The notes under the pieces were generated by a model. That model did not search any database and was not told the origin of the DNA. It saw only the letters and a program-made list of their open reading frames with translations. A stretch of 32,000 nt of DNA, taken from NCBI GenBank assembly GCA_017934955.1, contig JAGBIO010000003.1, positions 1 to 32,000 of the forward strand, given 5' to 3'. Shown piece after piece: positions 2,766-31,536 of this stretch. How positions within the stretch are numbered: position 1 is the first letter of the stretch; each line of letters opens with the position of its first letter. A program made the position numbers and the translations under genes. Source of the stretch: Clostridia bacterium. Lineage in GTDB: Bacteria > Bacillota > Clostridia > TANB77 > RGIG9151.

Positions 2766-4100
2766 ATGAGAATTTTAATGTTATCATGGGAATATCCGCC
2801 GAGAATTGTCGGAGGAATTTCACGAGTGGTGTATGACTTGGCTCAAAAATTAGGAGAAAAAGGAAATGAAGTACATGTTGTAACATGTATGGATAAAAAT
2901 ACGAAAGAGTTTGAGAAGGACAAGAACGTTTATGTTCATAGAGTATATACAGTTGGTCCTGATACAAAGGGCGACTTTTTGAAACAAACTTTGCATATGA
3001 ACTTTGCCTTAACGGAAAAAGCAGTGGAGGTAATGGATCATATCGGTAAATTTGATATTATTCACGCGCATGATTGGTTAGTTGCTTTTGCGGCTAAGAC
3101 ACTAAAACATGCTTATAAGATTCCGATGGTTGCGACGATTCATGCTACGGAACATGGCAGAAATAACGGAATTCATACCGATATGCAAAAATATATTCAT
3201 GATAGTGAATGGTGGTTGACTTATGAGGCTTGGAAAGTAATTTGCAACAGCCAATATATGCAAAATGAAATTACAAATATCTGGGGATTACCGAGAGCGA
3301 AGTCGCAAATTATTTTCAATGGTGTGGACATTCATAAATTCGATGGCATTCAGCGAGATATGGAATTTAGAAGAAAGTATGCGATGGATCATGAGAAAAT
3401 CGTATTCTTTGTGGGAAGAATGGTGCGCGAAAAAGGTGTACATGTTTTAATTGATGCGATTCCAAAGATTTGTCAACATTATAACGATGTTAAGTTTGTG
3501 TTTGCCGGAAAAGGTCCTGAATTGGATAGTTTGAAGGCGAGAGCTTGGGCGACAGGATATGCGCATAAGACATTATTTACGGGTTATATCAGCGACGAAG
3601 ATCTGTTGAAACTTTATAAATGTGTGGATATTGCGGTATTCCCGAGCTTATATGAACCATTTGGTATTGTAGCTTTAGAGGGAATGATTGCGGATGTTCC
3701 GACGGTTGTTTCGCAAGCGGGTGGTCTTGGTGAAATTATTAATCATGGTTATGACGGTATGAAAGCATATACAGGAAATTCCAATTCATTGGCGGATTGT
3801 GTGTTGGAATTATTGTTTAACAGCAACGAGAAGAATGCGGAGATTAGAAGTCATGCAATGCAGAAAGTTCATGATTTGTATAATTGGGACAAGATTGCAG
3901 AGCAAACCTATAATGTCTATAAAGAAGTTGTAGAGGAAGCAAAATTGATTAATTGGGAAAATACGGAATTGAAAAACGGTGTAAAAGAACTAAATGATAA
4001 GAAGGTAATTCACACGGTTGTGGAGAATACTACGGAGTCTAATAAAAAATCTGCGAAGAAGTCTTCTGCTAAGACAGAGAAGTTACAGAAAATAGGTTAG
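2766..4100 (+). CDS. GT-B fold retaining glycosyltransferase (GT4-like, group 1)
   Basis: N-terminus MRILMLSWEYPPRIVGG and HAHDW motif. E-x7-E-type motif SLYEPFGIVALEGM. SD aggggag lies 8 nt upstream of the ATG. Confidence 0.85.
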   Translation: MRILMLSWEYPPRIVGGISRVVYDLAQKLGEKGNEVHVVTCMDKNTKEFEKDKNVYVHRVYTVGPDTKGDFLKQTLHMNFALTEKAVEVMDHIGKFDIIHAHDWLVAFAAKTLKHAYKIPMVATIHATEHGRNNGIHTDMQKYIHDSEWWLTYEAWKVICNSQYMQNEITNIWGLPRAKSQIIFNGVDIHKFDGIQRDMEFRRKYAMDHEKIVFFVGRMVREKGVHVLIDAIPKICQHYNDVKFVFAGKGPELDSLKARAWATGYAHKTLFTGYISDEDLLKLYKCVDIAVFPSLYEPFGIVALEGMIADVPTVVSQAGGLGEIINHGYDGMKAYTGNSNSLADCVLELLFNSNEKNAEIRSHAMQKVHDLYNWDKIAEQTYNVYKEVVEEAKLINWENTELKNGVKELNDKKVIHTVVENTTESNKKSAKKSSAKTEKLQKIG

Positions 4101-4220
4101 TTAAAATTATTAGGCGAGGGTGATTACCCCCGCCTAATTCAATTGTTGCTATAAACTTCGATGTAAATTTGTCGATTTATATATGGAAAGCATTCAACAT
4201 TTTAACAAGGAGGTAGTCTA

Positions 4221-6659
4221 ATGAAAGCAATTATTATGGCAGGAGGCGCAGGTTCTCGATTGAGACCTCTTACGTGTGGGAGACCTAAGCCTATAGTACC
4301 GATTATGAACAAGCCTGTAATGGGAAGAATTATTGAATTATTGAAGAAAAACGGGATTACAGATATTGGTGTAACGCTTCAGTTTCTACCGGAAAAAATT
4401 GAAAATTTGTTTGGCGACGGAAGTGAATGGGGAGTAAATATTCAATATTTTATTGAAGATTCTCCTTTGGGTACTGCAGGAAGCGTTAAAAACGCTGAAG
4501 AATTTTTGGATGATACGTTTGTGGTAATCAGCGGTGATGCTTTGACGGATATCGATTTGTCGAAAGCGATTGCGTTCCATAAGGCGAATAATACCATTTG
4601 TACCTTAGTTTTGAAGGAAGTTGCGGTTCCGTTGGAATATGGTGTTGTTATGACGGACGATAACGGTAAAATTGTTCGTTTCTTGGAAAAGCCGAGTTGG
4701 GGGGAAGTATTCAGTAATCTTGCGAATACCGGTATGTACATATTGGAACCGAAGGCTTTGTCTTATTTTGAGAAGAATAAGAAATTTGACTTTAGTCAAG
4801 ATTTATTCCCGCTTTTAATGAATGAAGGAAATGACTTGTACGGCTATGTAACAACCGATTATTGGTGCGATGTGGGAGATATCGGTTCTTATATTCAATC
4901 GCATATTGATATTCTTGAGAAGAAAGTAAATATTGATTTGTCTTCGGAATTTACCAACAAAAACGGTGTATTTATCGGAAAGAATGTAGAAATTGATCCG
5001 ACGGCTGTGATTACGGCGCCGGCGGTTATCGGAGATAATTGTAAAATCGGTAAGAATGTTCAGATTCAAGAATATACCGTATTAGGTGAAAATGTAACGG
5101 TAGACGAGAATGTAACGATTAAAAGAGGAATTGTTTGGCAGAATACACACATAGGTTCCAATACTCGCATGAGTGCCGGTATTTTGTGTTATGGAAATAA
5201 TGTGAAGTCGAATGTGGCGATTTTAGAGGAAGCAGTCATCGGGGATGAATGTCAAATCAAGGATCGTGCGGTAATCAAATCCGGGGTTAAGATTTGGCCG
5301 AACAAGATTATTCAAACCGCTACCGAAGTGAATGAGAGTATTATTTGGGGAACGAAAGTAAGCAGAACGTTGTTTGGAAAGACCGGAATTACCGGTGAGA
5401 TGAATGTAGAGATTACGCCGGAATATGTGGTAAAACTTGGTTTGGCGTATGCTTCAATTTTGAAGCCAAATAGTAAATTGGCAGTTTCTGCGGATAGTTC
5501 TGCAGCGGCTTCTTTATTGAAAACTTCTGTTTTATCGGGCGTTGCGTCTGCCGGTGTGGAAGTGTTTGATTTGGGACATACCATGCTTCCGATTGTACGA
5601 AATGTGATTAATTTCTTTGGTTTTGATGGTGGAATTCATATCTCTTTTGAAAAACAGAATGAGGATCGTATTCGAATTAATTTCTTGGATAATAAAGGAA
5701 TTAATATTACAAGAGGAATTGAACGAAAAATTGAAAATATGTTTGTGACCGGAGAATTCAGACGTGTAAATGTGGATAAGATTAAGGAAACAAACATGTT
5801 GGAAAATTACAATTATTTCTATTTACAGAATTTGATGAATACACTTGATTTGGAGGCAATCAGAAGAAATAATGTGAAAGTAGTTGTTGGAAAGTGTGAT
5901 AGTTTTGTATATGAAATGATGGAGAAAATCTTGCGCGATTTGAATTGTACCGTTATTAACGAGAGACGGGACAGTGGCGAAGATAACTTAAATATTTTGA
6001 GCCAAAAAGTAGTGAACAGCGGAGCTGCGTTAGGTATTCAGCTTGCGGCGGATGGCGAGAGAATGACCTTGATTGATGATAAGGGTCAAGTGATTAAGGG
6101 CGATTTATATACGGCATTGTTATCCATTATCTCCGTAAAGTTGAAAGAAGCGAACCAAATTGTGGTTCCGTTTACGACAACAGAAGTAATGGAACAAATT
6201 GCGACGAAGTTTAATACGGGAATTATTCGTACCAAAACCAGTCAGCAAGAACATATGAGCAAGTTGATGGAAAATTCCAATACCGATGTGAAGAAAAACT
6301 TTATTTTGAATTATGACGTTTTTGCGGCTACAGCGAAAATTATTAATTATATTTCTAAGGAAAATACAACCCTTTCAGCGCTTGTGAAATCGATTCCGGA
6401 ATTCCATACGACGAAGAAGAATATCGATTGTCCTTGGGATGCAAAGGGCAAAGTAATGAGAGCGTTAACACAAGAAAAGGTAGACAATACCATGGAATTG
6501 TTTGAAGGAGTAAAAATTCACCTTGATAAAGGCTGGGTATTGGTGTTGCCGGATGCGGATGAGCCGGTTTGTACGGTTTACAGCGAAGGGGTTTCGGCAG
6601 AAGTTGCGGAGTCGCTTTCGGAAATGTATGTGGATAAGATTAAACATATTATTCAATAA
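4221..6659 (+). CDS. Sugar-1-phosphate nucleotidyltransferase fused to a left-handed beta-helix and a degenerate PGM/PMM-like domain
   Basis: N-terminus [18 protein letters not shown]...PKP is the NTP-transferase signature. Hexapeptide-like repeats occupy residues about 250-360. The C-terminal half has phosphohexomutase-like layout but altered catalytic motifs (see findings). SD aaggagg present. Confidence 0.85.
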
Positions 6660-6702: not shown

Positions 6703-6856
6703 GTTACTATTCAAACTTAAAATTATAAAAATGGCACAAATACTGTAGGGACAGCATTTATGCTGTCCACGGAAAAGGTAGAAAGTAGGACAGCATGAAT
6801 GCTGTCCCTACAATGGTTGTACCATTATTGTAGGCGATATAGTTTGATTAGTAACC
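6703..6856. mobile_element. Complete 154-bp MITE-like element with REPIN core, inserted in a terminator loop
   Basis: Ends gttactattcaaact / agtttgattagtaacc. Core hairpins at 6745-6768 and 6788-6811. Flanking direct repeats taaattt (6696-6702) and taatttt (6857-6863). Confidence 0.85.
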
Positions 6857-7578: not shown

Positions 7579-8685
7579 ATGCTATTGAGTACAAATGTAT
7601 TGGAGCGGGAAAATGAAAAAGTGCAAGTCCCTTTAAAAAAAGAAGGAACAGAGAAAAAAAGCGGACGAATTGATTGGGTGGATGCGTTAAAGTTTATCGG
7701 AATTTTCTTTATTTATGTGGCTCATTTTGTGGAAAATTCCGGAAAACTTTGTTTATATGCCTATGCGTTTCATGTGCCGTTATTTTTCTTTATTGCCGGA
7801 TTTTTTGCGTTGAAGCATAAGGAGGATTCTTTTTGGAAGTACGGTTGGCATAAAGTGAAAACGTTATTATTACCGTATTTCTTTTTTGGATTTTTGACGA
7901 TTGCGGTACTTACCTTACAGGCGAATTATCTTCCGATTTCTTTTAAGGAAGTTTTTTCGGACCTTTTGTTGGGAATGCGAAATCGGATGTTTGCGAGTCC
8001 GTTGTGGTTTTTCCCTTGTTTGTTTTTGGTGGAAGTTTTCTTTGAAGGAATGCTAAAAATATTTCGGAATAAGTATTTTGTTTTGACGGCTTGTGTCATT
8101 TTGTTCTTGGCGGCGGAACAATTTTTCTATCAAGACTATGTGGTTTTGCCACGTCTTTGGTTTAGTGCGGATACGGCTTTGTATTATTTACTGTATTATG
8201 CGATTGGGGCTGTTTCTTTTGAAAAGATATCGAAGGCTTCTTTTTCTAAGGAAAAGCCTTGGAAAAAAGTTCTTTTTTCAGGTTTATTTTTGGCGACTGC
8301 CTTGATTGCGTGTATGGTCTTTTTTGAGAAGGAAGCTGTTTTGAAAAATATCTTTTTGGCTTTTCCTTTGGGAGATGCGTTGTATGAGGTTTTTGTTGCG
8401 TTAAGCCTTATTTTATTCCATATTGTGATTGCAAAACAGCTGACGAAATTTCCGTTGGTTTGTGAAATCGGAAGGAATACCTTGTGGCTTTGCGGAAATG
8501 AGTTAGTAATGAAGACGGTACTTCCGGTATTGCTTTCTGTATTTGGCTTGCACCTTTCTTTGCAGACACCGCTACATACGGTTTTGTATTCTTTTATTTT
8601 GCTGGTAATTGCAGTTAAAACTGTTATTCCGGTAGAGAGGAAGTTAATAGGAAATTTGTTTGATTCGAGAATTAAGCACAAATAG
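7579..8685 (+). CDS. Acyltransferase family 3 integral membrane protein
   Basis: 368 aa and polytopic. N-terminal RIDWVDALKFIGIFFIYVAHF is typical of the acyltransferase_3 family. SD ggaagaggag present. Confidence 0.75.
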   Translation: MLLSTNVLERENEKVQVPLKKEGTEKKSGRIDWVDALKFIGIFFIYVAHFVENSGKLCLYAYAFHVPLFFFIAGFFALKHKEDSFWKYGWHKVKTLLLPYFFFGFLTIAVLTLQANYLPISFKEVFSDLLLGMRNRMFASPLWFFPCLFLVEVFFEGMLKIFRNKYFVLTACVILFLAAEQFFYQDYVVLPRLWFSADTALYYLLYYAIGAVSFEKISKASFSKEKPWKKVLFSGLFLATALIACMVFFEKEAVLKNIFLAFPLGDALYEVFVALSLILFHIVIAKQLTKFPLVCEIGRNTLWLCGNELVMKTVLPVLLSVFGLHLSLQTPLHTVLYSFILLVIAVKTVIPVERKLIGNLFDSRIKHK

Positions 8686-8741: not shown

Positions 8742-8785
8742 AAATGAATAGAGACAGGCGTGGGATCGCTTGTCTCTATTCATTT
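8742..8785. terminator. Bidirectional hairpin between convergent genes
   Basis: 15-bp stem aaatgaatagagaca / tgtctctattcattt extended by 3 more pairs. It overlaps the stop of the minus-strand gene. The T-runs are weak. Confidence 0.5.
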
Positions 8786-9960
8786 ATAAAGTGAAAGTTA
8801 GAGATATCGAAAACGTGAGTATTGTAAAGAACCATAACCAGATCGAAGTGATGTCCTTTTGCGTATTCGTAAGGGTTCGGAGCGCCGGGGTAGCGTAAGT
8901 CGATCATATGGAGTTCTTCGACGGCGGTTGATAGAAAGGCGGCTACCGGCAATGAGAAGGAGTCTTTTATCATAAGAATTTTTAGGTGGTTGTCGGCAAG
9001 TTTATTTTTTACTACTAAATTTCCGTATTCATATTCGAAGTAACTTGCGTATTTATTGTCTTTTATGTTGGTGGAGGACAGCAAATTTTCTTTTGCAATT
9101 GCTGTCATGAAGTCGCCACTGAATGCCGGTTCGGTGGTAGGGTCGGGTGAAAAATAAATTTCGTAGTTTGTTTCAAATTTCGGATAAAAGAAAGTGTAAT
9201 CGTCTATGCCGACCGCGTATTTTCCGATTCTTCTTCCGAGGGAGCCTAAGAAGGAGTGAGGATAAGTAACTGAGGCATAGTTTTGGCGGTTGGTATATTT
9301 TTCGGATAAGGGCAGATGAAAGGTTTGGTTTAACGTTTCGGCAATTTTCGTATAACCGTAAAAGGCTGTTTCTGTTGTCCAGTGATGATCGGTTTTATAG
9401 AATAGATCGGATTTGTCTAATTGGCCCTGTTCAATCGATTTCCGTAAGTCAAGATAGGGAACGTTATTTTGCTGAAGTTGTTCTAAAAATTGGTCGGCAT
9501 CTTCGTTGGAATAGTTGTGTCCGCCAACGGGATAAACAGTATAATTTTTCAATTTTTTGTTGGGGGCTTGAATATATAGAAACGGGGTTCCCAATTCTTT
9601 TAAATTTTCGTAGAGTCGGATAGTTTTTTCTGCGCAGGGCTTTGTATCTACAACATAGTAGGGAAAGTGAAGGCTATCGTGATTATCTCTTATAATAAAA
9701 CCGTATTCGATATCATCGTATAGGCTTGTATTCAGTGCTTTTTGCGTGAGGGAATACAGATTCAAGAGATTGTCGAAATTTGTTAGCTTCGTATTGAAAA
9801 TGTTATCAATTGCGGCAATTTTATCTTGGACCGTTAGCAATTTTTCCGATAAAACCGATTGAATTTCCGAATGATTGGAGAAAATAGTGGTAGCGGAGAA
9901 GTAAAAAAGCAGTAGGAGAAATAGAATCGTTACGGTTGTTTCTTTGAAATTTTTTTTCAT
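8776..9960 (-). CDS. DHHW-motif protein (AlgJ/AlgX/DltD-like SGNH-type O-acyltransferase partner), N-terminal membrane anchor
   Basis: Motif FYKTDHHWTTETAFYGY. N-terminal TM segment TILFLLLLFYF. SD ggaggaaaact present. The start lies 13 nt after the MBOAT stop. Confidence 0.8.
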   Translation of the reverse strand: MKKNFKETTVTILFLLLLFYFSATTIFSNHSEIQSVLSEKLLTVQDKIAAIDNIFNTKLTNFDNLLNLYSLTQKALNTSLYDDIEYGFIIRDNHDSLHFPYYVVDTKPCAEKTIRLYENLKELGTPFLYIQAPNKKLKNYTVYPVGGHNYSNEDADQFLEQLQQNNVPYLDLRKSIEQGQLDKSDLFYKTDHHWTTETAFYGYTKIAETLNQTFHLPLSEKYTNRQNYASVTYPHSFLGSLGRRIGKYAVGIDDYTFFYPKFETNYEIYFSPDPTTEPAFSGDFMTAIAKENLLSSTNIKDNKYASYFEYEYGNLVVKNKLADNHLKILMIKDSFSLPVAAFLSTAVEELHMIDLRYPGAPNPYEYAKGHHFDLVMVLYNTHVFDISNFHFINE

Positions 9961-9972
9961 AGTTTTCCTCCA

Positions 9973-11409
9973 TTAAAAATTAAAGTAAATAAATGGATTA
10001 TAAGTTCCTTTGATTAAATAGGAGACGGAAACAAAGAAGAGCAGCAGGTAAATGACGGTGCTTGAAATATCTGTAATGACTGTTAGCAGTTTGTTATTTT
10101 TTTGTTTTACGTAACTCGTAATTTTTTGGCAGACTGGTGTAGAGAAGAGGAGTGCGGCGAGTAGGAAAATCTTTTTTTGTTGTATGTATTGTAGAAAGGT
10201 GTTGTCTGTTAAGTTGGCGGCAAAAAACATATTTTTTAAGTAAGTTATGGCAGAAGTGAGTGTTTCGGCTCGGAAAAGAACCCAACCGAATAAAACAACC
10301 GCCACAGAGTAAATTCTTCCTAATGTGTTTGAGAGAATTGTTTTTAAGGCAGAGTCTTTGAAGCGTTTAATAAAGAACAGTTTCTCAATAACTAAGAATA
10401 GGAAGAAGTACAGTCCCCATACAATAAAGTTCCAAGAAGCTCCGTGCCATATTCCGGTGAGCAGCCATACAACAAAGAGGTTTAGGACAAGTCGCGGTTT
10501 GGAGGTTCTTGAGCCGCCTAACGGTATGTAAACGTAATCGCGGAACCATGTAGAAAGTGAGATATGCCATCTTCGCCAAAATTCGGTGATGTTTTTTGAA
10601 ATGTAGGGATAATTGAAGTTTTCGTCAAATTGGAATCCAAACATTTTGCCAAGACCGATTGCCATGTCGGAATAACCGGAGAAGTCGTAATAAATTTGGA
10701 ACATATAAGCGATTGCTCCGAGCCAAGCAAAGGCGACAGATAACGGTGAGAGTTGGTTAAATGCTGCATCCGCGATTAGTGCCATTTGATTGGAGATTAA
10801 TACTTTTTTGGTGAGTCCGGCAATAAAGCGCAAAACGCCTTGCGAAAAGTTTTCAAAGGTTTCGCTGCGATGTTGGATTTGTTCGGAAATGGTTTCGTAT
10901 CGAACGATTGGCCCGGCTACCAATTGCGGAAAGAATGCGATATAAAGTCCAACATTCAGAATATTTTTTTGTACGTCGCCGTGTTTTCTGTAAATGTCAA
11001 TTACATAGGATATCGCCTGAAAGGTAAAGAAAGAGATTCCGATCGGAAGATGAATCGACGGAAGCGTGAAGTTTGTACCGAAGGCGGCATTTATGTTTGT
11101 TAAAAAGAAAATCAAGTATTTAAAAAGAAAAATAATAGCTAAATTAAACAGTACGGTTAGGATAAGAATGCATTTTGAGGCGATAGCAGATTCCCGATAG
11201 CGATGGATGAGGAGCCCGAAAATATAGTTGACGGTAATGGATAAAAGCATAACGAATACGAATTTTGGTTCGCCCCATGCGTAAAATACAAGACTGGCAA
11301 GAAATAGGAACAAATTCTTGAGAGTGATGTATTTTTTAGGGATGATGTAATTGATAAGTAGGACTGCCGGTAAAAAGCCGAACAGAAATGTTAAACTTGA
11401 AAAAAGCAT
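9973..11409 (-). CDS. MBOAT family O-acyltransferase (AlgI/DltB/PatA-like)
   Basis: 478 aa and polytopic. Motifs FWRRWHISLSTWFRDYVYIPLGGSR and TGIWHGASWNF contain the conserved MBOAT histidines. Confidence 0.9.
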   Translation of the reverse strand: MLFSSLTFLFGFLPAVLLINYIIPKKYITLKNLFLFLASLVFYAWGEPKFVFVMLLSITVNYIFGLLIHRYRESAIASKCILILTVLFNLAIIFLFKYLIFFLTNINAAFGTNFTLPSIHLPIGISFFTFQAISYVIDIYRKHGDVQKNILNVGLYIAFFPQLVAGPIVRYETISEQIQHRSETFENFSQGVLRFIAGLTKKVLISNQMALIADAAFNQLSPLSVAFAWLGAIAYMFQIYYDFSGYSDMAIGLGKMFGFQFDENFNYPYISKNITEFWRRWHISLSTWFRDYVYIPLGGSRTSKPRLVLNLFVVWLLTGIWHGASWNFIVWGLYFFLFLVIEKLFFIKRFKDSALKTILSNTLGRIYSVAVVLFGWVLFRAETLTSAITYLKNMFFAANLTDNTFLQYIQQKKIFLLAALLFSTPVCQKITSYVKQKNNKLLTVITDISSTVIYLLLFFVSVSYLIKGTYNPFIYFNF

Positions 11410-13617: not shown

Positions 13618-13820
13618 GGGACAGCATGAATGCTGTCCGTACAGGAAGGAAGAAATGCGTTTGTAGGGACAGCATTTATGCTGTCCACAGAAAAGGCGGA
13701 AAAGCGGGACAGCATGAATGCTGTCCGTACAGGAAGGAAGAAATGCGTTTGTAGGGACAGCATTTATGCTGTCCACAGAAAAGGCGGAAAAGCAGGACAG
13801 CATGAAAGCTGTCCCTACAG
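13618..13820. repeat. Tandem array (about 2.3 x 88 bp) of REP hairpins filling the GH15-radA gap
   Basis: gggacagcatgaatgctgtccgtac recurs at 13618 and 13706 (and, with two substitutions, at 13794). gtagggacagcatttatgctgtcc recurs at 13662 and 13750. Five hairpins in total. Confidence 0.9.
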
Positions 13821-19256: not shown

Positions 19257-19410
19257 GTTACTATTTAGACTATATCTCTTAAAATAATGGTACAATCTTT
19301 GTAGGGACAGCATTTATGCTGTCCGCAGAAAAGGCGAAAAGCAGGACAGCATAAATGCTGTCCCTACAGTGTTTGTGCTATTTTTATAATTTTAAGTCTG
19401 AATGGTAACC
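19257..19410. mobile_element. Complete 154-bp MITE-like element with REPIN core
   Basis: Ends gttactatttagact / agtctgaatggtaacc. Core 19301-19366. Flanking direct repeats tttatta (19250-19256) and tttattt (19411-19417). Confidence 0.85.
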
Positions 19411-24043: not shown

Positions 24044-24268
24044 ATGAAAGTTTTTCTGATTGTTGTGATGGGATTGTCCTTTCTTGCAACTTGTTTTATG
24101 CAAAATAAAACAATTCCGGGTGTAATCGGATTGATTGCCGTGGTAATCTTTATTAAGACATTGCTAAATGAAATTGCGGATTTACGTGAGGAAGAAGAGC
24201 GTTCCATTGAGAAAATTGATGAAGAATTGTATGAAAAGAATGATAAAAAAGAGGAAATCAGTGAATGA
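24044..24268 (+). CDS. Small membrane protein with acidic C-terminal tail
   Basis: 74 aa from the ATG at 24044 (the track GTG at 24035 is an alternative). Two hydrophobic segments are followed by a Glu/Lys-rich tail. The terminator overlaps the stop. Confidence 0.55.
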   Translation: MKVFLIVVMGLSFLATCFMQNKTIPGVIGLIAVVIFIKTLLNEIADLREEEERSIEKIDEELYEKNDKKEEISE

Positions 24269-24283
24269 TTTCCTCTTTTTTTC
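24245..24283. terminator. Bidirectional Rho-independent terminator
   Basis: 11-bp stem agaggaaatca / tgatttcctct with loop gtgaa, an A-run upstream and T6 downstream. It lies between convergent genes. Confidence 0.85.
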
Positions 24284-24288
24284 TCAGA

Positions 24289-25287
24289 TTATTTGCCTTT
24301 ATAGCTATTATGTTCCTCTAAGGTTTGGCTGAAATAGTGTTCTCCGTTTCCTACGGCTTTGGCACGATAATAAAGATAAGGCGTTTCCTCCGGTTCTAAT
24401 GCAGCTTCGATACAGGCTTTTCCGGGTGAGGCGATAGGGGTCGGCGGAAGTCCTTTGTATTTATAAGTGTTGTACGGGGAGTCGACCTCTAAGTCTTTAT
24501 AGAGAAGTCGTTCTTTTTGTTCCGGTAGGAGATATTGAATGGTGGCATCAATTTGGAGCAACATGCCTATTTTAAGACGATTATGGATGACACTGGATAT
24601 TGTTTTCCTTTCCGAATCAATTTTTGCTTCACGCTCGATTAATGACGCAATAGTGACAATTTCCTTTACACTGAATCCAAGAGCGTCTGCTTTTTTTTGA
24701 TAGTCTTCTGTCCAAACTTTATCAAATTGATTTAACATAGTTTGTATGATTTCTTTTTCTGTCCAAGTAAGCGGAATCGAATAGGTTTCCGGGAACAAAA
24801 AACCTTCCAATTGGCGATAATCGTTGCCCTTTTCCATATAGTCGTAAGGTAGTTCCATAGAGCCGGCATATTCGAGGAATTTTGTCTCATCGACAAGTCC
24901 TTTTTGAGAAAGCATTGCAGCAATTTGTTTTACGGTGTAGCCTTCGGGTATCGTTACCAAGATTGCTTCTGCTTGATTCCCCTTTAGAAGGGTTTCGAGA
25001 ATGTTGTCAAAATCGACTTTTCCCGGTCCGAATTTATAATTGCCGGGTTTTAGAGAAGCAGTTGCGTCTTTTTGTTTGATAAAGAAAACAAAGGCGGAAG
25101 TATTTTTAATAATTCCGTTATTTTTTAAGTTTTTTGCAATGCTTTTCGTTCCGGCACCTTCCTGAATCGTGATTTTAATTTCCTCTTTTAAGGTAACTTC
25201 GTCAATGTGAATTACGTAAAAAATGCCAAGTAGCAAGAAAACAGCAATAAAGATAATTCCGATTTTTAAGATTAAATTTTTTTTCAT
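24289..25287 (-). CDS. mltG: Endolytic murein transglycosylase MltG (YceG-like)
   Basis: N-terminal TM. Motifs IASLIEREA and YNTYKYKGLPPTPIASPG. The ATG overlaps the upstream TGA (ATGA). Confidence 0.9.
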   Translation of the reverse strand: MKKNLILKIGIIFIAVFLLLGIFYVIHIDEVTLKEEIKITIQEGAGTKSIAKNLKNNGIIKNTSAFVFFIKQKDATASLKPGNYKFGPGKVDFDNILETLLKGNQAEAILVTIPEGYTVKQIAAMLSQKGLVDETKFLEYAGSMELPYDYMEKGNDYRQLEGFLFPETYSIPLTWTEKEIIQTMLNQFDKVWTEDYQKKADALGFSVKEIVTIASLIEREAKIDSERKTISSVIHNRLKIGMLLQIDATIQYLLPEQKERLLYKDLEVDSPYNTYKYKGLPPTPIASPGKACIEAALEPEETPYLYYRAKAVGNGEHYFSQTLEEHNSYKGK

Positions 25288-26816
25288 TTTAGTTTCTCCT
25301 TTTCCGATGATTTTGATGACGTCAAGGCGAGTGCCGCCATAATCTGTAATACGAAAGAGACAATAAAGGTGTAACGGGATTGAACTTCCATTAACATAAG
25401 CGCACCTTCAAATCCGAGGAGCAGTAGTCCCATCAGGCAAGTGATGTCATTTTTTCTGTATCGGATACTGTAAATAAATACACCAATAAGAAGAGTACAG
25501 GAATAGATACTTGAAAGTATATAAAGCGTGGTAAGGGAGTTCGGATATTGGTCTAAAATAGATTTAGACCAATAAATTCCGGCAAAATCATTTTGCGCCC
25601 AAATTGCGTGTGTTTTTGTAACAAAGAGCAGTAAGATTTTTTCTGGATTTTGTGTTAAACGTTCAATAAGACGTGTTTTAATTTCTTTTTTTATTTCTTC
25701 TAAATTTCCGTTTTTCTCAAAATAAATATTCTGATCTTCCGCTGAGAAAGTTCCATTCGTTTCAAAGTTGAAACCAACCAAGCAATAAATGGTATAAGGA
25801 ACGGCGCTTTTGTCTAAATAATATTTGGTTACACCGGTTTGGTAAAGGGTAACGCTGACGCTTTGAAAAATAAGGATATAGGTAACCAATAGCGTAAAAA
25901 GTGCCGATAACTTTCGTTTCTTTGTTGTATAGGAAAAATCGAAGATTTTGCCTATACAACAAAAAACGCTCCGCGAGGATGCACACTCACGCGAAAGGAA
26001 TGTTGCTGCGCAACCCGCGTTCGGCGCAGGTGTTTTGCCTTCGCAAAACACTTTTGTTCCAAATATTGTCAAAATGCCTATTCCGTATGCGGCGAGGTAC
26101 ATCGGTGCGACGCCTCGATAGAGGGAACCGACAGTAAGAAAAATTCCGGAAAGAAAAACGTAGCTTAGCATTTTCTTATGCGGTTCCGTATTTTGATATG
26201 CTTTTATTAAGAAATAGAGAGAAAGCATAAAAAACGGCATGGCGAAGTTTTCTGTAATTAAAACCGAAGAATAGGCGATTGAAGCAGGAAAAATACTATA
26301 TAAGAAGGCAGCAGCAAGCCCTGTTTTTCGGCTTTTTATCGTTTTCCCAATTCCGTAGAGAATCGGAATACAAGCGATTTGTAATAGTAAATTGATGATT
26401 TTAATTGGCAACAGCGAGCTTCCGAAGCACTTTATAATTTGTGCAAGGGTAAAAACATAAACCGTAAGGTGCGGGAAACGATGAAAATAGGATCCTTCTT
26501 GAAATGGAGAATTCCCGGTTGCCAAATCAATTGCGGAACGATACATCACTTCGTAATCACTTACCGGTACCGTAGGAACGTTTGTAATCCATATCGCACG
26601 TAGTACAACTCCTAAAAGCAGGAGAACGGTAAGTAAAATAATTGTCTGTCTTTTTGAGGGTTCTTTTATTTGAAAGAAAAGTAACCCGAGAAAAATGACG
26701 GTAGCGACGGAGGAAACAGCGATGATTATTCCGTAATTTTTAATGGCGGTATTTATGGAAAAATATAAGATCACTGCGACAAATGCAATTAAGACATAAT
26801 TAAAAAAATACTTCAT
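25284..26816 (-). CDS. GT-C fold polytopic glycosyltransferase (PMT_2/ArnT-like, GT39/83-like) carrying a 48-codon atypical insert
   Basis: Many TM helices throughout. The start is uncertain: the ATG at 26816 is preferred, and 26849 and the track start 26876 are alternatives. The stop overlaps the mltG start. Confidence 0.75.
   Translation of the reverse strand: MKYFFNYVLIAFVAVILYFSINTAIKNYGIIIAVSSVATVIFLGLLFFQIKEPSKRQTIILLTVLLLLGVVLRAIWITNVPTVPVSDYEVMYRSAIDLATGNSPFQEGSYFHRFPHLTVYVFTLAQIIKCFGSSLLPIKIINLLLQIACIPILYGIGKTIKSRKTGLAAAFLYSIFPASIAYSSVLITENFAMPFFMLSLYFLIKAYQNTEPHKKMLSYVFLSGIFLTVGSLYRGVAPMYLAAYGIGILTIFGTKVFCEGKTPAPNAGCAATFLSRECASSRSVFCCIGKIFDFSYTTKKRKLSALFTLLVTYILIFQSVSVTLYQTGVTKYYLDKSAVPYTIYCLVGFNFETNGTFSAEDQNIYFEKNGNLEEIKKEIKTRLIERLTQNPEKILLLFVTKTHAIWAQNDFAGIYWSKSILDQYPNSLTTLYILSSIYSCTLLIGVFIYSIRYRKNDITCLMGLLLLGFEGALMLMEVQSRYTFIVSFVLQIMAALALTSSKSSEKEKLK
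25917..26060. repeat. GC-rich multi-hairpin segment lying in frame inside the GT-C gene (second repeat family)
   Basis: Four hairpins: ttgttgtatagg-N17-cctatacaacaa (25921-25961), cgcg..cgcg, ctgcgc..gcgcag and gtgttttgc-cttc-gcaaaacac. The 29 nt at 25933-25961 recur at 28079-28107 with 2 mismatches. Confidence 0.6.
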
Positions 26817-26838
26817 TTTTCTGAAAATCACCTCAACT

Positions 26839-27822
26839 CTAAGTTTCATACTTTTTTTTCTTTCGTGTAAACACAAAAAATTTAGTTAATAAAAAGGTAA
26901 TCGGAATTCCGATAATCGCCGCTAACGTGTAAGCAATCAGTTTGTCCCAATGTAGGATGTTGTAGATGATAACGACGCAGAGGTTTTGGATCATAAAGTT
27001 CGGTATGTAAGCAATCGCAAATTTGATAAATTTCATAAAAGATAATGTTTTATCCTGAAAGGTAATCCGACTGTTGAGTAGGTAGGAAATACATAAGCTA
27101 AGCAGATATCCTAACACAAAAGCTGTATTTGGGTCAGCGAAAGCATTAAACAGCATGGAAAAGAGAATTCCGTTAAAGGTATTGATACAACCTACAAAAA
27201 GAAAGAGAAGAAATTGTTTTGAGAAGAAATTCTCTAAGAAAAGTTCTGTTTTGCTTTTTTGGTAACTGTCCCATGCAATCATTTTTTCTTTTTTGACGAT
27301 AAAGGCATTTTGCGCCAATTCTTTTAACGGAGTATCGGAGAAAGAATCTGAGTAAAAGGTATCGATTTTTCCTTCCGTTTCTTTTGCTAAAAATTCCGTC
27401 ACTTTTTGCATTCCGTAACAATTTTCTCCGGTTATTGTTCCGGTCGTTTTATTCATATTTGTGGCAATCAGATTCGGTTGGTTGATTTCTTTTAAAACCG
27501 GCTGAAGGAGGAAGGTAGGGGAGGCGGAGATGATATAGTCGGAGGAAGAAATTCTTTCTGTTAATTCTTTCCGAAGGTGCTTCGATTCCTTTTTCCAAAA
27601 CGCATCTAAGTAAGAATCGATATCTTTGATTCCCTTTAAAAAAGAGAAAAAATTTTCCTTCCATTCTTTTTTCGGAATGAACCCCAAAATATATTTTGTA
27701 AGCGAAAGACATTGCTTTGGCAGATATCTTAACAAAAGTGGATTTTTGCGAAGAGAAAACAAGTAAAAATTCACTGTAGAATCGCCCTGATACAATGTTT
27801 TATCAAAATCGTAAACGTTCAT
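26839..27822 (-). CDS. HAD-superfamily phosphatase fused to a GtrA-like membrane domain
   Basis: HAD motif I YDFDKTL at the N-terminus and FYSDSFSDTPL (motif IV-like). The C-terminal 130 aa has four TM helices typical of GtrA. I prefer the ATG at 27822 (aaggag 5 nt upstream). The track start at 27894 reads through the repeat element. Confidence 0.8.
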   Translation of the reverse strand: MNVYDFDKTLYQGDSTVNFYLFSLRKNPLLLRYLPKQCLSLTKYILGFIPKKEWKENFFSFLKGIKDIDSYLDAFWKKESKHLRKELTERISSSDYIISASPTFLLQPVLKEINQPNLIATNMNKTTGTITGENCYGMQKVTEFLAKETEGKIDTFYSDSFSDTPLKELAQNAFIVKKEKMIAWDSYQKSKTELFLENFFSKQFLLFLFVGCINTFNGILFSMLFNAFADPNTAFVLGYLLSLCISYLLNSRITFQDKTLSFMKFIKFAIAYIPNFMIQNLCVVIIYNILHWDKLIAYTLAAIIGIPITFLLTKFFVFTRKKKKYET

Positions 27823-27835
27823 AAAAACTCCTTTT

Positions 27836-28107
27836 TTATTGTATAGGTCAGAATTAAATTTATAGAAATAGCATAAATAGTGTAGGAACAGCATTTATGC
27901 CGTCCACAGAAAAGGCAGAAAGCAGGACAGCATTGCGGACGTAACACCGTGAGTGTAACGAACGGCTTGTACGTCCTATACAAAGAAACTCCAAGAACGT
28001 AGTGATTGGGAAGTTTCGACTGTTAATGCTGTCCCTACAATGGTTGTACCATTATTGTAGGAGATATAGAACAGTAACAAAAACTGAAGATTTTGCCTAT
28101 ACAACAA
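27836..28107. repeat. Composite: family-2 hairpin interrupted by a MITE/REPIN copy that itself carries a 90-bp nested insert
   Basis: ttattgtatagg (27836-27847) | MITE 27848-28078 | aaaaactgaagattttgcctatacaacaa (28079-28107). The second REP hairpin is split at 27933/28024. Confidence 0.8.
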
Positions 28108-28131
28108 CGAAAATACAATAGTTTGTTCTAC

Positions 28132-28995
28132 TTAATTCCAATAAGGAAGAATGTAAATCAGTGTAAAAATAGTCGCACCGTATAATAAAACAAGTAAAAA
28201 TAAGAAACGATCGTGAAGTAGAGTGGAAACCGGATCGCCGTCGGAAATTCCTTCGACGGTTAAACTATATTTCATGCAGATAATCATTACAAGCGGGACT
28301 GTCCACATGATATGCGGTATCAATTCCACCGTATCGATGCACCACATTGCATAAAAGACAATCGTGAGTGCGACACAAACATACATATTTTTATCTAAAA
28401 AGTTTTTGTTGTATTTTGAAAGCACTTTTCTTGTACCGGTTTCGTTCTTCAAAACTTCATTTCGTCTTTTTCCAAGTCCGAGGTAGAAGGACATTGCCAT
28501 TACCGTAAGATACAGCCAGTCGGAGACAGCAACATTAATTAATGCAGCCCCAAAGAAAACACGGAGAATAAATCCGACGGATAAAACCGCAATATCAATA
28601 ATCGGCACGTTTTTTAAGTAGAAGGAATAGAGGAGGTTTAGAATTAAGTAAGTAAGGATAAGCGGATGCGGTAGAAAGGAGGAGAAGCAAATATAATTTA
28701 GACTTATTATCAAAATAGTTAATACTAATATAAATATTACGGCTTGTGTTTTGCTGACTCTTCCCGAGGCAATCGGGCGATTCTTTTTGGTCGAATGGTT
28801 TCTGTCTTTTTCGGCGTCGAAGATATCGTTTAAGATATAGACAATTGAGCAGGCAAGCGAAAATAAAATAAAGCCAAAGAATGTTTTTTTCAATAATTCC
28901 GGTTGCAGTAAGTTACGGCTGAAGAGGAGTGGCAGGAAAATCAAGCCGTTTTTGATATAATGTTTGATTCTCATTAATTTTATATAGTCTTTCAA
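28132..28995 (-). CDS. UbiA-family prenyltransferase resembling decaprenyl-phosphate phosphoribosyltransferase (DPPR synthase)
   Basis: Motif NDIFDAEKDRNHSTKKNRPIASG follows the ND..D...DR.H.TK..RPIA.G pattern that I associate with the Rv3806c-type subfamily. N-terminus MRIKHYIKNGLIF. TTG start with a weak SD. Confidence 0.75.
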   Translation of the reverse strand: MKDYIKLMRIKHYIKNGLIFLPLLFSRNLLQPELLKKTFFGFILFSLACSIVYILNDIFDAEKDRNHSTKKNRPIASGRVSKTQAVIFILVLTILIISLNYICFSSFLPHPLILTYLILNLLYSFYLKNVPIIDIAVLSVGFILRVFFGAALINVAVSDWLYLTVMAMSFYLGLGKRRNEVLKNETGTRKVLSKYNKNFLDKNMYVCVALTIVFYAMWCIDTVELIPHIMWTVPLVMIICMKYSLTVEGISDGDPVSTLLHDRFLFLLVLLYGATIFTLIYILPYWN

Positions 28996-29022
28996 TTTAT
29001 TTCAATCCTTTCTGATGCTTTT

Positions 29023-29078
29023 GGACAGCATAAATGCTGTCCCTACGAAGTTCTATACAGACAGCATTTATGCTGTCC
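29023..29078. repeat. REP hairpin pair in the LtaS-like/UbiA intergenic gap
   Basis: ggacagcataaatgctgtccctac (29023-29046) and gacagcatttatgctgtc (29060-29077). The pair ends 4 nt from the upstream gene stop. Confidence 0.85.
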
Positions 29079-29082
29079 GATT

Positions 29083-30906
29083 CTACGATAATGTTGCATC
29101 AATCAATTTTTTCCCATGCAAATAATCGTACTGGGTATATTTGTACTGTTTTAACAGCGGATTATTTAAGAAATCCGGTTTTCCTATGTAGTCGCCGTTT
29201 TCATCGCAGGCAAAGTACGGATGAATAACGGTGTAATTAGCGTAAATTTTATTAAATAATTTCGAATACCAAGGAATATTGGTAAGGTTCGCAGTCATGA
29301 GTGTTTTTAATCCTAAGTTTGCAGGGCTGATTCGTTTCGGATAAATGGTTTTATCTAACGGGAAATTTGCCCAAACAATATACGGTGTTTCAAACATTGC
29401 CGGATTTTCCGAAAGTTCGCCGGAAAAGAAGCCGGTATGAATATAGGTACTGCTGTCAATTCCCAAGAATGGCAGATGATCGCCGTATATAGTAATTAAA
29501 GTCGGTTCACCGACGTTTTTGAAATATTCCGTTAAGGTATAAAAGGATTGGTCGATGTCGTAGATTCCTTGTACGGCATCTTTTAATCCGGCTAATTCTT
29601 CGTCGGTGACTGCGTCGGATGTGACATCGATATCGTAACTGTCATAGCGTTTTTCTAAATAATTTCCGTGATTTTGCATGGAAATGGCATAAATAAAAAT
29701 CGGTTCTTCCTCTTTTTCTTCGAAGGTCTTAATGATTTGCCGTGTTAATTCCATGTCGGAAATGTAGATTCCTTTTTTCTCGGGATTTTCAAAGTCCTTA
29801 TCTCCGTAAAATTCCTCGAATCCCATTAGATCATAGGCGGTATCTCGATTATAAAATTTCTTATCATAGGTATGTAAAGCTGTCGTGGAATAGCCTTCCG
29901 ATTGACAGATAGAAGCAAGCGAAATCGTCGGTTTTAGGATGTATTGACTGTACGGATAACTTCCAACCGGAAGAAAGGCAGAGGAAAATCCTGTCAGAAA
30001 CTCAAATTCCGGAATACAAGTATTACAACCGTAAGATGGAGAAACAACTTGTCCTGCCGGAAAGGTTTTCCCTAAACGATGAATATTCGCAAGAGGATCG
30101 GCAGATAGCGTAATGTTTGGCATTAAAGTCGGGTCCCAAAGACTTTCGCTCTGAATAGCGATAATATTGATTTTTTCTGTTTCTTCTTCCACCGGATAAT
30201 ACTCTTCGATGTCGTTATTGGCAAAAAGAATATTCGACATAGTTTCTTGGTTATAGTTTTGATAAGGTGCGACTCTTAAATCTCCGATTCTTGTGAAAAA
30301 GGTTAAGATCAGTCCGTTTTTGTTGTAGTCGTTGATAATATAAAAGTTCGACAAAGGAACTCCCAATTTCGGCAAAAGTTCATGCCGAAAGGAATAATTA
30401 AAGCAAAAACAATACAAAACCGTAACGCATAGCACAAAACTGCCAAGCGTCTTTGGAACAGAAAAACGCAGGCGGTCGCTCTTTTTATAAAGGTAAGTGT
30501 AAACAATCAGGTGTGCAACAAGAATAATCGCGGAAATCACCATATAGCGATCTACCGGAACTTTTATAAAACTTACGATATCTTCTAATTTTCCCGCCAA
30601 TAATAAATTCGCCGGTAACAACGGATCCGAGGTAATTCGTATTTTAATCCGACAAACAATTGCCATGATAAAGAAAAACAAATTAATCGTATAAAAGCTG
30701 ATAATTTGTTTCTTAAACAGGTTTCCAAGAAAAATTTGCAAAGCAGAAATAAACAAGAAGGATAAGGCAGTGTTCATCAGAAGTTGTAGCGGTGTATTAA
30801 AAGAAAGCGGTGAATTTCCGCCAAACCGAAGGATATCTAAAAGAAAAACGGTAATAAGCGGAGAGATATAATAATAAATTCTTTCCAAAGAAATTTTTTT
30901 CGTCAT
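29083..30906 (-). CDS. LTA-synthase/sulfatase family membrane protein (LtaS-like)
   Basis: An N-terminal polytopic region is followed by an extracytoplasmic sulfatase-type domain with GCNTCIPEFEFLTG (Thr nucleophile motif G..T...EFE.LTG). I prefer the ATG at 30906 (ggag 7 nt upstream) over the track start at 30969. Confidence 0.8.
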   Translation of the reverse strand: MTKKISLERIYYYISPLITVFLLDILRFGGNSPLSFNTPLQLLMNTALSFLFISALQIFLGNLFKKQIISFYTINLFFFIMAIVCRIKIRITSDPLLPANLLLAGKLEDIVSFIKVPVDRYMVISAIILVAHLIVYTYLYKKSDRLRFSVPKTLGSFVLCVTVLYCFCFNYSFRHELLPKLGVPLSNFYIINDYNKNGLILTFFTRIGDLRVAPYQNYNQETMSNILFANNDIEEYYPVEEETEKINIIAIQSESLWDPTLMPNITLSADPLANIHRLGKTFPAGQVVSPSYGCNTCIPEFEFLTGFSSAFLPVGSYPYSQYILKPTISLASICQSEGYSTTALHTYDKKFYNRDTAYDLMGFEEFYGDKDFENPEKKGIYISDMELTRQIIKTFEEKEEEPIFIYAISMQNHGNYLEKRYDSYDIDVTSDAVTDEELAGLKDAVQGIYDIDQSFYTLTEYFKNVGEPTLITIYGDHLPFLGIDSSTYIHTGFFSGELSENPAMFETPYIVWANFPLDKTIYPKRISPANLGLKTLMTANLTNIPWYSKLFNKIYANYTVIHPYFACDENGDYIGKPDFLNNPLLKQYKYTQYDYLHGKKLIDATLS

Positions 30907-31342: not shown

Positions 31343-31536
31343 GTTACAGGTTAGACTCAAAATTGTCTCAAATATATCGGAACGTTGGGGACGCCGTCCC
31401 CTACAATGTTTGTACAGGTATTGTAGGGACAGCATTTATGCTGTCCTGCTTTTCTGCCTTTTCTGTGGACAGCATGAATGCTGTCCCTACAATGATTGTG
31501 CCATCATTGCAGAAAAATGTAGTATGAATAGTAACC
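31343..31536. mobile_element. Complete 194-bp MITE-like element with extra GC-rich hairpin module and inverted core
   Basis: Ends gttacaggttagact / tatgaatagtaacc. Extra module at 31378-31404. Core at 31421-31490 with spacer tgcttttctgccttttctgt. Flanked by a perfect direct repeat ggaaaat (31336-31342 and 31537-31543). Confidence 0.85.

Follow-up and report, generated by a model that had tools for sequence, protein, structure and literature searches.

The window analysed here, a stretch of 32,000 nucleotides of low GC content (about 38%) from contig JAGBIO010000003.1 of an uncultured Clostridia bacterium (assembly GCA_017934955.1), carries five co-oriented genes on the minus strand between positions 24289 and 30906. 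An initial annotation of the sequence had recognised all five open reading frames (ORFs), and each of them is present as described there. They encode a sulfatase-family enzyme, a UbiA-superfamily protein, a HAD phosphatase fused to a GtrA-like domain, a GT-C glycosyltransferase and the transglycosylase MltG. The gene calls of the scaffold bearing the window (ENA ERZ28654748 scaffold_1331, a metagenomic scaffold of 56 kb) were used for the ORF starts. The first four genes and their parts are as follows.

29083..30906, minus strand: GacH-like phosphoglycerol-transferase-family enzyme (sulfatase family); ATG start, 607 amino acids (aa); Pfam Sulfatase 2.5e-35
28132..28995, minus strand: UbiA-superfamily polyprenyl-phosphate 5-phosphoribosyltransferase-like protein (PPPRS-like, DPPR-synthase-like); TTG start, 287 aa; Pfam UbiA 8.6e-21
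26839..27822, minus strand: HAD::GtrA fusion, whole gene; Pfam HAD 1.1e-14 and GtrA_DPMS_TM 4e-17
27208..27822, minus strand: HAD-IB phosphatase domain, N-terminal cytoplasmic half of the fusion, predicted polyprenyl-phosphate-ribose-5-phosphate phosphatase (PRP); Pfam HAD, TIGR01490
26839..27207, minus strand: GtrA-family membrane domain forming the C-terminal part of the fusion; predicted to flip or otherwise handle the lipid-linked sugar; Pfam GtrA_DPMS_TM
25284..26816, minus strand: PMT_2-type GT-C glycosyltransferase, predicted extracytoplasmic pentofuranosyltransferase; 510 aa; Pfam PMT_2 2e-10
25930..26055, minus strand: in-frame insertion of about 41 codons inside the GT-C gene; hairpin-forming, GC-richer DNA

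The true start of the HAD::GtrA gene is the ATG at 27822, which is preceded by AAAGGAG, and not the start of the longer ORF at 27894. The GT-C start at 26816 follows the scaffold call, with alternative starts at 26849 and 26876. From this gene content, the family assignments, the conserved catalytic residues, the gene fusions and the conserved cassette described below, it is likely, with an estimated probability of about 0.62, that the sulfatase, UbiA, HAD::GtrA and GT-C genes make up a module, complete in itself, for the extracytoplasmic decoration of a surface glycopolymer of a Gram-positive cell.

The UbiA protein was matched best by the NCBIfam models of decaprenyl-phosphate 5-phosphoribosyltransferase (DPPR synthase; NF008977, 2.2e-59; NF008978, 3.3e-53) and by that of a HAD::UbiA fusion family (NF006088, 5.6e-49), whereas models of the 4-hydroxybenzoate, heme-o, chlorophyll and archaeal-lipid prenyltransferases gave about 1e-10 or worse (TIGR01474, 7e-10; cyoE, 2e-6). 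It aligned over its full length with the structure of the Mycobacterium tuberculosis DPPR synthase (8J8J, E 4.8e-32), as compared with 6e-6 for digeranylgeranylglyceryl phosphate synthase. On profiles and structure alike, the protein sides with the DPPR synthases and not with the quinone and heme prenyltransferases, as the initial annotation had proposed. Residues N56, D57, D60 and D64 of loop II and K176, R177, R178, N179 and E180 of loop IV do not vary among 26 relatives and line up with their counterparts in the M. tuberculosis enzyme; residues of both loops matter in that enzyme and, by mutation, in ORF15 of Citrobacter (PMC11127046). The motif from which the DPPR synthase assignment had originally been drawn, NDIFDAEKDRNHSTKKNRPIASG, is present, and in the alignment it falls on the catalytic loop of the M. 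tuberculosis enzyme. The pattern NDxxDxxxD...RPxxxG is, however, common across the UbiA superfamily, so that the motif was dropped as a diagnostic of DPPR synthases in favour of the profile and structure scores, which do discriminate. Enzymes of this type are widespread, with more than 6,000 matching protein clusters and representation in 377 GTDB species representatives, nearly all of them Bacillota, and identity to the window protein is at most 59% in the best 80 loci from these species representatives. Carriage by phages was also considered and rejected, the sole match being distant (33% identity) and unannotated.

As first annotated, the next gene joins a HAD phosphatase and a GtrA-like domain in a single ORF. 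The HAD half matches TIGR01490 at 4e-19 in addition to Pfam HAD and keeps all four HAD motifs (D5xD7xT9, S99-S101, K140 and D159/D163), and the GtrA_DPMS_TM match spans residues 231-342 of the long ORF. In the position that a PAP2-type phosphatase (Rv3807c) takes in mycobacteria, no PAP2 domain was found in the window, and the HAD-IB domain is present instead. A search with the HAD domain alone against 1.8 billion representative proteins gave 1,474 matches in three length classes, namely stand-alone proteins of about 190 aa, GtrA fusions of about 325 aa, and proteins of 500-1070 aa in which the domain is fused to YfhO, PMT_2, DUF6080, a GT2 or UbiA. One of these, P0242, is a HAD::UbiA fusion with a DPPR-synthase-like UbiA half and a HAD half that is 45% identical to that of the window; it is colinear with the proteobacterial HAD::UbiA of Paracoccus through the DxDxT, SAS and NCxGxxK motifs. 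In a protein from a metagenome-assembled genome (MAG) of uncultured 'Tenericutes'/Bacilli (locus L083, 12667-15003), a HAD-IB domain of the UbiA-associated family is fused to a multi-transmembrane LtaS/GacH-like sulfatase; the fusion has 778 aa and is encoded two genes away from a UbiA gene and a gene for a DUF6080-like membrane protein. Given its fusions to YfhO, PMT_2, DUF6080, GT2 and UbiA proteins and the colinearity of P0242 with the proteobacterial fusion, this HAD family is, as far as its domain partners indicate, dedicated to extracytoplasmic glycosylation from lipid-linked sugars, and it is a putative homolog of the PRP of ORF15-type proteins.

Apart from itself, the GT-C protein has few homologs, none more than 40% identical. 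The AlphaFold 2 (AF2) model of the protein (pLDDT 74.7, pTM 0.80) was used for a Foldseek search of the PDB, in which the top 19 matches were all GT-C enzymes (STT3, AglB, PglB and ALG3), with ArnT and Pmt1/2 lower, and the predicted fold is thus that of a GT-C. Conserved motifs comprise SD(Y/F) after the early transmembrane (TM) helices, RFPH, ENxAxP and QxRY. The Pfam PMT_2 match and the naming of homologs as 'glycosyltransferase family 39' by NCBI suggest that the enzyme belongs to a family other than GT136, the family founded by the Citrobacter enzyme discussed below. The insertion in this gene (VFCEGKTPAPNAGCAATFLSRECASSRSVFCCIGKIFDFSY) is absent from all 15 aligned homologs and forms a disordered loop in the model (residues 254-296, pLDDT about 32). 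Its DNA has 48% GC as compared with 38% for the GT-C gene and contains two or three strong hairpins. When recurrences of the insertion were looked for, a single 22-nt hairpin arm was found, at 28086-28107 in the gap between the UbiA and HAD genes. The insertion has the appearance of a small, palindromic mobile element inserted without a shift of the reading frame. Separately, a conserved upstream protein of 531 aa was examined as a hidden GT-C and rejected, since it has two to three N-terminal TM segments and a large soluble domain and shows no similarity to the UbiA neighbours.

The sulfatase-family enzyme consists of an N-terminal multi-TM domain (about five to six segments) and an extracytoplasmic sulfatase/alkaline-phosphatase domain. 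Its nearest solved relatives are GacH structures (5U9Z/6DGM; E 1e-20, 77 bits), followed by lipoteichoic acid (LTA) primase (LtaP; 2e-10, 43 bits) and LtaS (7e-5 to 2e-3, 25 bits); EptA and MCR-1 were not matched in the same search of solved structures. The earlier description of the protein as an LtaS-like member of the sulfatase family can be retained as to the family but not as to the nearest relative, which by these scores is GacH, and the score against the LtaS equivalog model NF053595 is 40.8 bits for a cutoff of 970. The active-site motifs that align with GacH are kept (SESL with its Glu, GCNTC of the G-x-N-T type with its Thr, MQNH and YGDHLP), and we take their roles, including those of the Thr as the nucleophile and of the metal ligands, to be those in GacH and LtaS. 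Since GacH, LtaP and LtaS were matched whereas no EptA or MCR-1 structure was, the group transferred is most likely glycerol phosphate (GroP) rather than phosphoethanolamine.

To place these genes in a wider context, the neighbours of UbiA within four genes were compared at 75 non-redundant loci by unlabelled clustering followed by HMM searches; labelling of neighbours by single-sequence BLASTP was abandoned as insensitive for the GT-C and sulfatase genes. A HAD-IB phosphatase of the window family lies near UbiA at 42 of the 75 loci, as a HAD::GtrA fusion at 20 and as a stand-alone protein at 21, and in the clustering 35 of the 46 HAD genes neighbouring UbiA are immediately downstream of it. 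Large membrane proteins (at least 400 aa and at least eight TM segments) are found at 58 loci and span PMT_2, DUF6080-like and DUF6020 proteins as well as others without a Pfam match, while a PMT_2-type GT-C like that of the window is found at 19. Rarer neighbours are a candidate epimerase (15/75), the ATPase (14/75) and permease (7/75) of a TagGH-like ABC transporter, and a sulfatase (6/75). In the reverse test, which started from the four closest homologs of the sulfatase on long contigs (42-47% identical), all four were found in a compact cassette of sulfatase, PMT_2 GT-C, UbiA, and HAD or HAD::GtrA. The four cassettes are flanked by differing housekeeping genes, and all their proteins are 35-54% identical to their counterparts in the window; in Clostridium puniceum and Clostridium sp. 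C2-6-12 (loci L014 and L019) the same four genes occur in a different order. Because every homolog examined sits in the same cassette, the sulfatase-family enzyme is, on this gene-neighbourhood evidence, an integral member of the module. The survey and the cassettes together indicate that the gene set predicted from the window is syntenic in many Bacillota.

An unfused module was observed on plasmid pF27D of Lactococcus cremoris (L097, NZ_CP068515.2, 7596-10715), a mobilizable exopolysaccharide plasmid of dairy lactococci, where a 462-aa hypothetical protein, a 'decaprenyl-phosphate phosphoribosyltransferase', a 'HAD-IB family phosphatase' and a short 'GtrA family protein' are encoded within a Wzx/Wzy/LCP polysaccharide cluster.

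The sugar carried by the lipid depends on whether an epimerase acts on it. In the window, a Pfam scan found neither FAD_binding_4/ALO (DprE1) nor SDR (DprE2) domains, nor any other type of epimerase. The DprE1-like and DprE2-like proteins of an arabinose-type locus of Paracoccus, used as tblastn probes, gave a single weak match, at L068 among the other Bacillota loci, and none in the window, its scaffold or the four cassettes. The earlier statement that the window lacks a DprE1/E2-like gene is borne out by both approaches, and as the module has no linked epimerase, its sugar would most likely remain ribofuranose (Ribf).

The locus that supplied these probes, on plasmid pAK3 of Paracoccus sp. 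AK26 (L098, 6836-15335), is a complete proteobacterial arabinose-type locus that encodes, in this order, HAD::UbiA, GtrA, an FAD-binding oxidoreductase (DprE1-like), an SDR (DprE2-like) and three hypothetical proteins of about 500 aa. The latter are possibly GT-Cs and bear no similarity to the window GT-C. Homologs occur on many Rhizobium plasmids. A different arrangement was seen in several Oscillospirales-type genomes (L054, L055, L058, L062 and L064; for example L054, 10001-12940). There, a membrane protein of about 457 aa is encoded ahead of UbiA, and behind it come two genes, one for a TIM-barrel protein similar to xylose isomerase (AP_endonuc_2, 276 aa) and one for an oxidoreductase of the GFO/IDH/MocA type (384 aa); there is no HAD. 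These two proteins may together serve as another kind of oxidoreductase/epimerase for the lipid-linked pentose.

The pathway that we infer from these genes, as to its substrates, the identity of its sugar, its flipping step, its acceptor and the order of its two outside reactions, would run as follows. The UbiA enzyme would join phosphoribosyl pyrophosphate (PRPP) and polyprenyl phosphate (polyprenyl-P) to give polyprenyl-P-Ribf-5-P, from which the HAD domain, tethered to the membrane via its fusion to GtrA, would strip the 5-phosphate to leave polyprenyl-P-ribofuranose. The GtrA domain, which by virtue of the fusion would receive the phosphatase product directly, would carry the lipid across to the outer leaflet. 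The PMT_2-type GT-C would then put Ribf on a polymer outside the membrane, for which a wall polysaccharide, a teichoic acid and a lipoteichoic acid are candidates. Finally, the GacH-like enzyme would take a phospho-alcohol, most likely the sn-glycerol-1-phosphate of phosphatidylglycerol, from a phospholipid of the membrane and add it to the new side chain or to the same polymer, in parallel with GacI/J/K/L and GacH of Streptococcus pyogenes. The initial annotation had arrived at the core of this scheme, namely polyprenyl-P-Ribf made by a DPPR-synthase-like UbiA and a phosphatase, handled by GtrA and used outside by a GT-C with no epimerase involved, and this core is supported by the UbiA profiles, the synteny, the HAD fusions and the lack of DprE1/E2. 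Its remark that the pathway is uncharacterised in Firmicutes also holds; yet the pathway itself was established in Citrobacter in 2024, and Gram-positive candidates were listed at that time (PMC11127046).

Three components, as demonstrated biochemically, provide the O antigen of Citrobacter youngae with its alpha-Ribf side chains: a PRP(HAD)::PPPRS(UbiA) fusion, which forms undecaprenyl-P-Ribf out of PRPP; a flippase of the MATE type; and the GT-C that founded GT136 (Kelly et al., PNAS 2024, PMC11127046). In systems of this kind, optional epimerases lead to xylofuranose (Xylf) or arabinofuranose (Araf), and the candidates in the supplement of that study include ones with a separate PRP, ones with SMR/GtrA-type transporters, and one Bacillus system (PMC11127046). 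The window locus shares with Citrobacter the first enzyme family and, as predicted, the logic of PRPP and polyprenyl-P, HAD phosphatase, flipping, and transfer of Ribf outside by a GT-C, and it likewise would use Ribf in the absence of an epimerase. Its GtrA transporter is an accepted SMR/GtrA variant of the three-component system (PMC11127046), and its transferase is of the GT-C fold as judged from the PMT_2 match and the AF2 model. By contrast, the HAD is fused to a GtrA-type transporter in the window and to UbiA in Citrobacter; the transporter is GtrA-type rather than MATE; the window GT-C is a PMT_2 protein (GT39/GT83-like) with no carbohydrate-binding module; the window module includes, as an integral fourth part, a GacH-like phosphotransferase; and the predicted acceptor is a Gram-positive polymer instead of O antigen. 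The module is, on this reading, a Gram-positive version of the pathway established in Citrobacter, the chemistry of which was known still earlier from mycobacteria, and not a new category of system, the new elements being the HAD::GtrA fusion, the PMT_2-type GT-C and the obligate GacH-like partner.

The mycobacterial decaprenyl-phosphate-arabinose pathway (Rv3806c, Rv3807c, DprE1/DprE2, Rv3789 and the Emb/Aft GT-Cs), with which the gene set had originally been compared, resembles the window locus in its homologous first enzyme (8J8J), its small GtrA-like membrane protein and its extracytoplasmic GT-Cs using a polyprenyl-P-pentofuranose, the last of these being a prediction for the window. It differs in that the window has no DprE1/E2 and a HAD phosphatase in place of PAP2, encodes one small GT-C unrelated in sequence to Emb/Aft, and is predicted to decorate a polymer rather than to polymerise an arabinan. 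A third comparison is offered by GacI/J/K/L and GacH (and the S. mutans Scc system), in which a lipid-linked monosaccharide is made inside, flipped and transferred outside by a GT-C, and in which GroP is then added outside the cell by a GacH-family enzyme whose gene lies in the same cluster; in S. pyogenes, GacH modifies the group A carbohydrate, a rhamnan, by placing GroP on its GlcNAc side chains (PMC9574508). The donor synthase of the window, however, would be a PRPP-dependent UbiA with a phosphatase as opposed to a GT-A (GacI/J) using UDP-GlcNAc, its flippase is GtrA-type as opposed to Wzx-type, and the TM domain of its sulfatase (about 5-6 segments) is shorter than that of GacH. Finally, the CsbB/GtcA/YfhO systems for glycosylation of LTA and wall teichoic acid in Bacillus and Listeria also combine a GtrA-family flippase with an outside GT-C acting on teichoic acids, and fusions of the window HAD family to YfhO proteins occur elsewhere; the donor in those systems is a hexose made by a GT2 from a UDP-sugar, with no phosphatase step and no UbiA (PMC7389260).

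Several observations weigh against the proposed decoration module. The UbiA protein scores just under the NCBIfam equivalog cutoffs (201.3 vs 234 bits for NF008977 and 180.7 vs 207 bits for NF008978), and for this reason it is classified, by its profile scores, as a divergent DPPR-synthase-like enzyme of a Bacillota branch and not as an equivalog. The window HAD matches the proteobacterial HAD weakly when the profiles are compared directly (hhalign E 0.016, probability 2.8%), and against solved structures the HAD profile matched no PRP but just an uncharacterised HAD-IB protein (3FVV, E 6e-4); as the direct match is weak, the PRP identity rests on context, fusions and transitive alignment. With the GT-C protein, a sequence search of the PDB gave no match, which is why its structure was predicted, and the structural matches reached TM-scores of just 0.30-0.44 (probability 0.89-1.0); the unusual 41-aa insertion might, in addition, impair the enzyme. 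Flippase activity of GtrA proteins has never been directly demonstrated (PMC11127046), and the literature gave neither biochemical or compositional data on a Firmicute system nor a later Firmicute study after Kelly et al. The epimerase search covered the 32-kb window and about 5 kb more of the scaffold (21.5 kb of the scaffold as L092). Furthermore, the closest relatives, with UbiA proteins 71-80% identical to that of the window, have sulfatase, UbiA and GtrA without a HAD or a GT-C nearby, and the simple model leaves this reduced version unexplained.

Among the alternatives, the main rival is the conceivable, if unlikely, case that the sulfatase is an LtaS/LtaP-type polymerase or primase making poly(glycerol-phosphate), and that UbiA, HAD::GtrA and GT-C ribosylate this chain on the outside as a pentose analogue of CsbB/GtcA/YfhO. 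The LtaS-like build of the 607-aa protein, with about five N-terminal TM segments and a catalytic domain outside, is consistent with this possibility, as are the matches to LTA primase and LtaS structures, the source annotations of its homologs as 'LTA synthase family protein' and the fusion of the HAD family to YfhO-type GT-Cs in other organisms; glycosylation of LTA is, moreover, possible only from lipid-linked donors (PMC7389260). The scores nevertheless favour GacH (77 bits) over LtaP (43) and LtaS (25), and the LtaS equivalog score falls far from its cutoff (40.8 of 970 bits). An essential housekeeping LTA synthase would also not be expected in a mobile four-gene cassette of varied contexts, nor to be swapped for a 28%-identical paralog in close relatives. 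A donor other than ribose, produced by an epimerase encoded elsewhere in the genome so that the GT-C adds arabinofuranose or xylofuranose, is rather improbable. Epimerases do act after the Ribf lipid has been formed, and GT-Cs can be promiscuous (PMC11127046); about 20% of the Bacillota UbiA loci have a nearby candidate (an SDR, or a GFO/MocA and TIM-barrel pair), and the sequence inspected amounts to 32 kb of the genome and about 5 kb more of scaffold. On the other hand, no epimerase was found in the window, in 21.5 kb of the scaffold (L092) or beside the four cassettes, which look self-sufficient, and the characterised or predicted Araf and Xylf systems all keep their epimerase genes in the cluster (PMC11127046; the Paracoccus locus is an example).

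It may also be speculated, with little expectation that it is so, that the cassette is a self-sufficient builder of a glycopolymer of ribofuranose and phosphate, assembled wholly outside the membrane from polyprenyl-P-Ribf and phosphatidylglycerol (for example, an LTA-like chain of poly(Ribf-glycerol-phosphate)), or that the sulfatase uses the ribose lipid directly as a phospho-sugar donor. Such a cassette would provide a route to the 'glycosyl-glycerol-phosphate' types of LTA, for the synthesis of which we know of no explanation. Wenzel et al. are said to have described in 2020 an LTA of C. perfringens with alpha-Ribf and phospho-substituents, an unconfirmed lead. In its rival form, to which we give marginally less credence still, the sulfatase and the GT-C alternate, or the sulfatase uses the ribose lipid, and a new ribose-phosphate polymer is built outside as poly(Ribf-GroP) or by ribose-1-phosphate transfer. 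At least two, and possibly three, mutually distant groups of sulfatases are linked to UbiA/HAD systems, namely the window/cassette type, the L001/L083 type that includes HAD::sulfatase and, more weakly, the sequences of L014, L019 and L005; the cassette contains no other polymer-synthesis genes, and close relatives retain sulfatase, UbiA and GtrA without any GT-C, all of which would suit a polymer of this kind. Use of a polyprenyl-phosphate sugar by an LtaS/GacH-type enzyme is, however, without precedent, the conserved active site is identical to that of GroP transferases using phosphatidylglycerol, and the simpler decoration model accounts for the full cassette. Hardly any credence is left for the already disfavoured view that the genes are functionally unrelated neighbours, in which case UbiA would serve as a prenyltransferase of quinone, heme or lipid synthesis and the HAD as a phosphatase of a general or PgpC-like kind. 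The HAD domain does match the PgpC and histidinol-phosphatase models weakly, and NDxxDxxxD is a motif common to all UbiA enzymes. Nonetheless, the DPPR synthase models outscore the prenyltransferase models by about 50 orders of magnitude, and the four proteins are tied together by conserved cassettes and multiple gene fusions. The decoration module thus remains our preferred reading.

The boundaries of the module are marked by the following features.

24289..25287, minus strand: MltG (YceG) endolytic transglycosylase; Pfam YceG 1.3e-91; TIGR00247 268.9 bits, cutoff 103.4
24245..24281, minus strand: strong intrinsic terminator ending the transcription unit; 16-bp stem followed by a T run, right after the mltG stop codon
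31180..31270, minus strand: tRNA-Ser(GGA), marker of the upstream boundary of the variable region; called by ARAGORN and Rfam

The contigs of the closest relatives share outer synteny with the window, with identities of 92% for sigA, 80% for MltG, 74% for UbiA and 83% for the GtrA domain, which in the relatives is a stand-alone protein. In these genomes (L001, 7779-12382; L008; L009; L011), UbiA, the stand-alone GtrA and MltG are kept, and the HAD domain and the GT-C are absent; their sulfatase is non-orthologous (28% identical) and is located across tRNA-Ser(GGA), which in L001 and L008 separates it from UbiA. Because close relatives are without the HAD domain and the GT-C, the locus is, judging from these comparisons, a variable surface-decoration site beside a conserved mltG. 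MltG itself, which exceeds its curated cutoff, occupies the same position in the relatives without GT-C and HAD domain and is missing from all four cassette loci. The initial annotation had listed it among the five genes of the operon; by this distribution it is a conserved housekeeping neighbour, co-transcribed yet outside the module.

Spacing within the operon is tight in part. The ATGA start/stop overlap of the GT-C gene with mltG (-4 nt) noted initially is present in the sequence, and 22 nt separate HAD::GtrA from GT-C; the description of all five genes as tightly spaced does not extend to the gaps of 87 nt between sulfatase and UbiA and of 309 nt between UbiA and HAD::GtrA. The latter gap contains one degenerate copy of a palindrome resembling repetitive extragenic palindromic (REP) elements and, distinct from it, the 22-nt hairpin arm shared with the insertion in the GT-C gene. 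An Rfam scan found no riboswitch or leader in the operon, its matches in the window being a 5S rRNA and two tRNAs located outside it, and a promoter scan gave signals no more frequent than expected from shuffling. The REP-like family is built on a perfect 20-nt palindrome, GGACAGCATTTATGCTGTCC, which often has GTAGG/CCTAC on its flanks; the window holds it at about 20 separate intergenic sites (for example, 1491-1550, 6749-6807, 13619-13814, 19305-19363, 29023-29078 and 31427-31486). It gave 36 strand-matches at three or fewer mismatches against 0 expected, and copies are usually paired about 40 nt apart; some lie between the sulfatase and UbiA genes and upstream of tRNA-Ser. Elsewhere in the window (8776-11409, minus strand, and 7579-8685), an MBOAT protein and a neighbouring AlgX-like SGNH protein constitute a DltB/PatA-like O-acylation pair, and an Acyl_transf_3 protein is encoded near them; a GT4 and an NTP-transferase::phosphomannomutase fusion are encoded at 2766-6659. 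The product of one of these further envelope-modification genes could act on the polymer of the module.

Ribofuranose is scarcely documented on the wall polymers of Gram-positive bacteria, where its biosynthetic route is not known, and the locus supplies concrete, testable genes for such a route. If the proposed decoration is correct, many gut and environmental Bacillota would bear ribofuranose on wall or lipoteichoic polymers, in view of the 377 species-representative genomes and more than 6,000 protein clusters in which the UbiA type is found. The module would connect phosphoglycerol transfer of the GacH type with pentofuranose side chains, and the natural fusion of a HAD phosphatase to a flippase could aid the study of how lipid-linked sugars are handed over to GtrA-type transporters. 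Finally, since close relatives differ in exactly the genes of the module, the locus probably drives strain-level variation of the cell surface that is relevant to recognition by phages and by the host.

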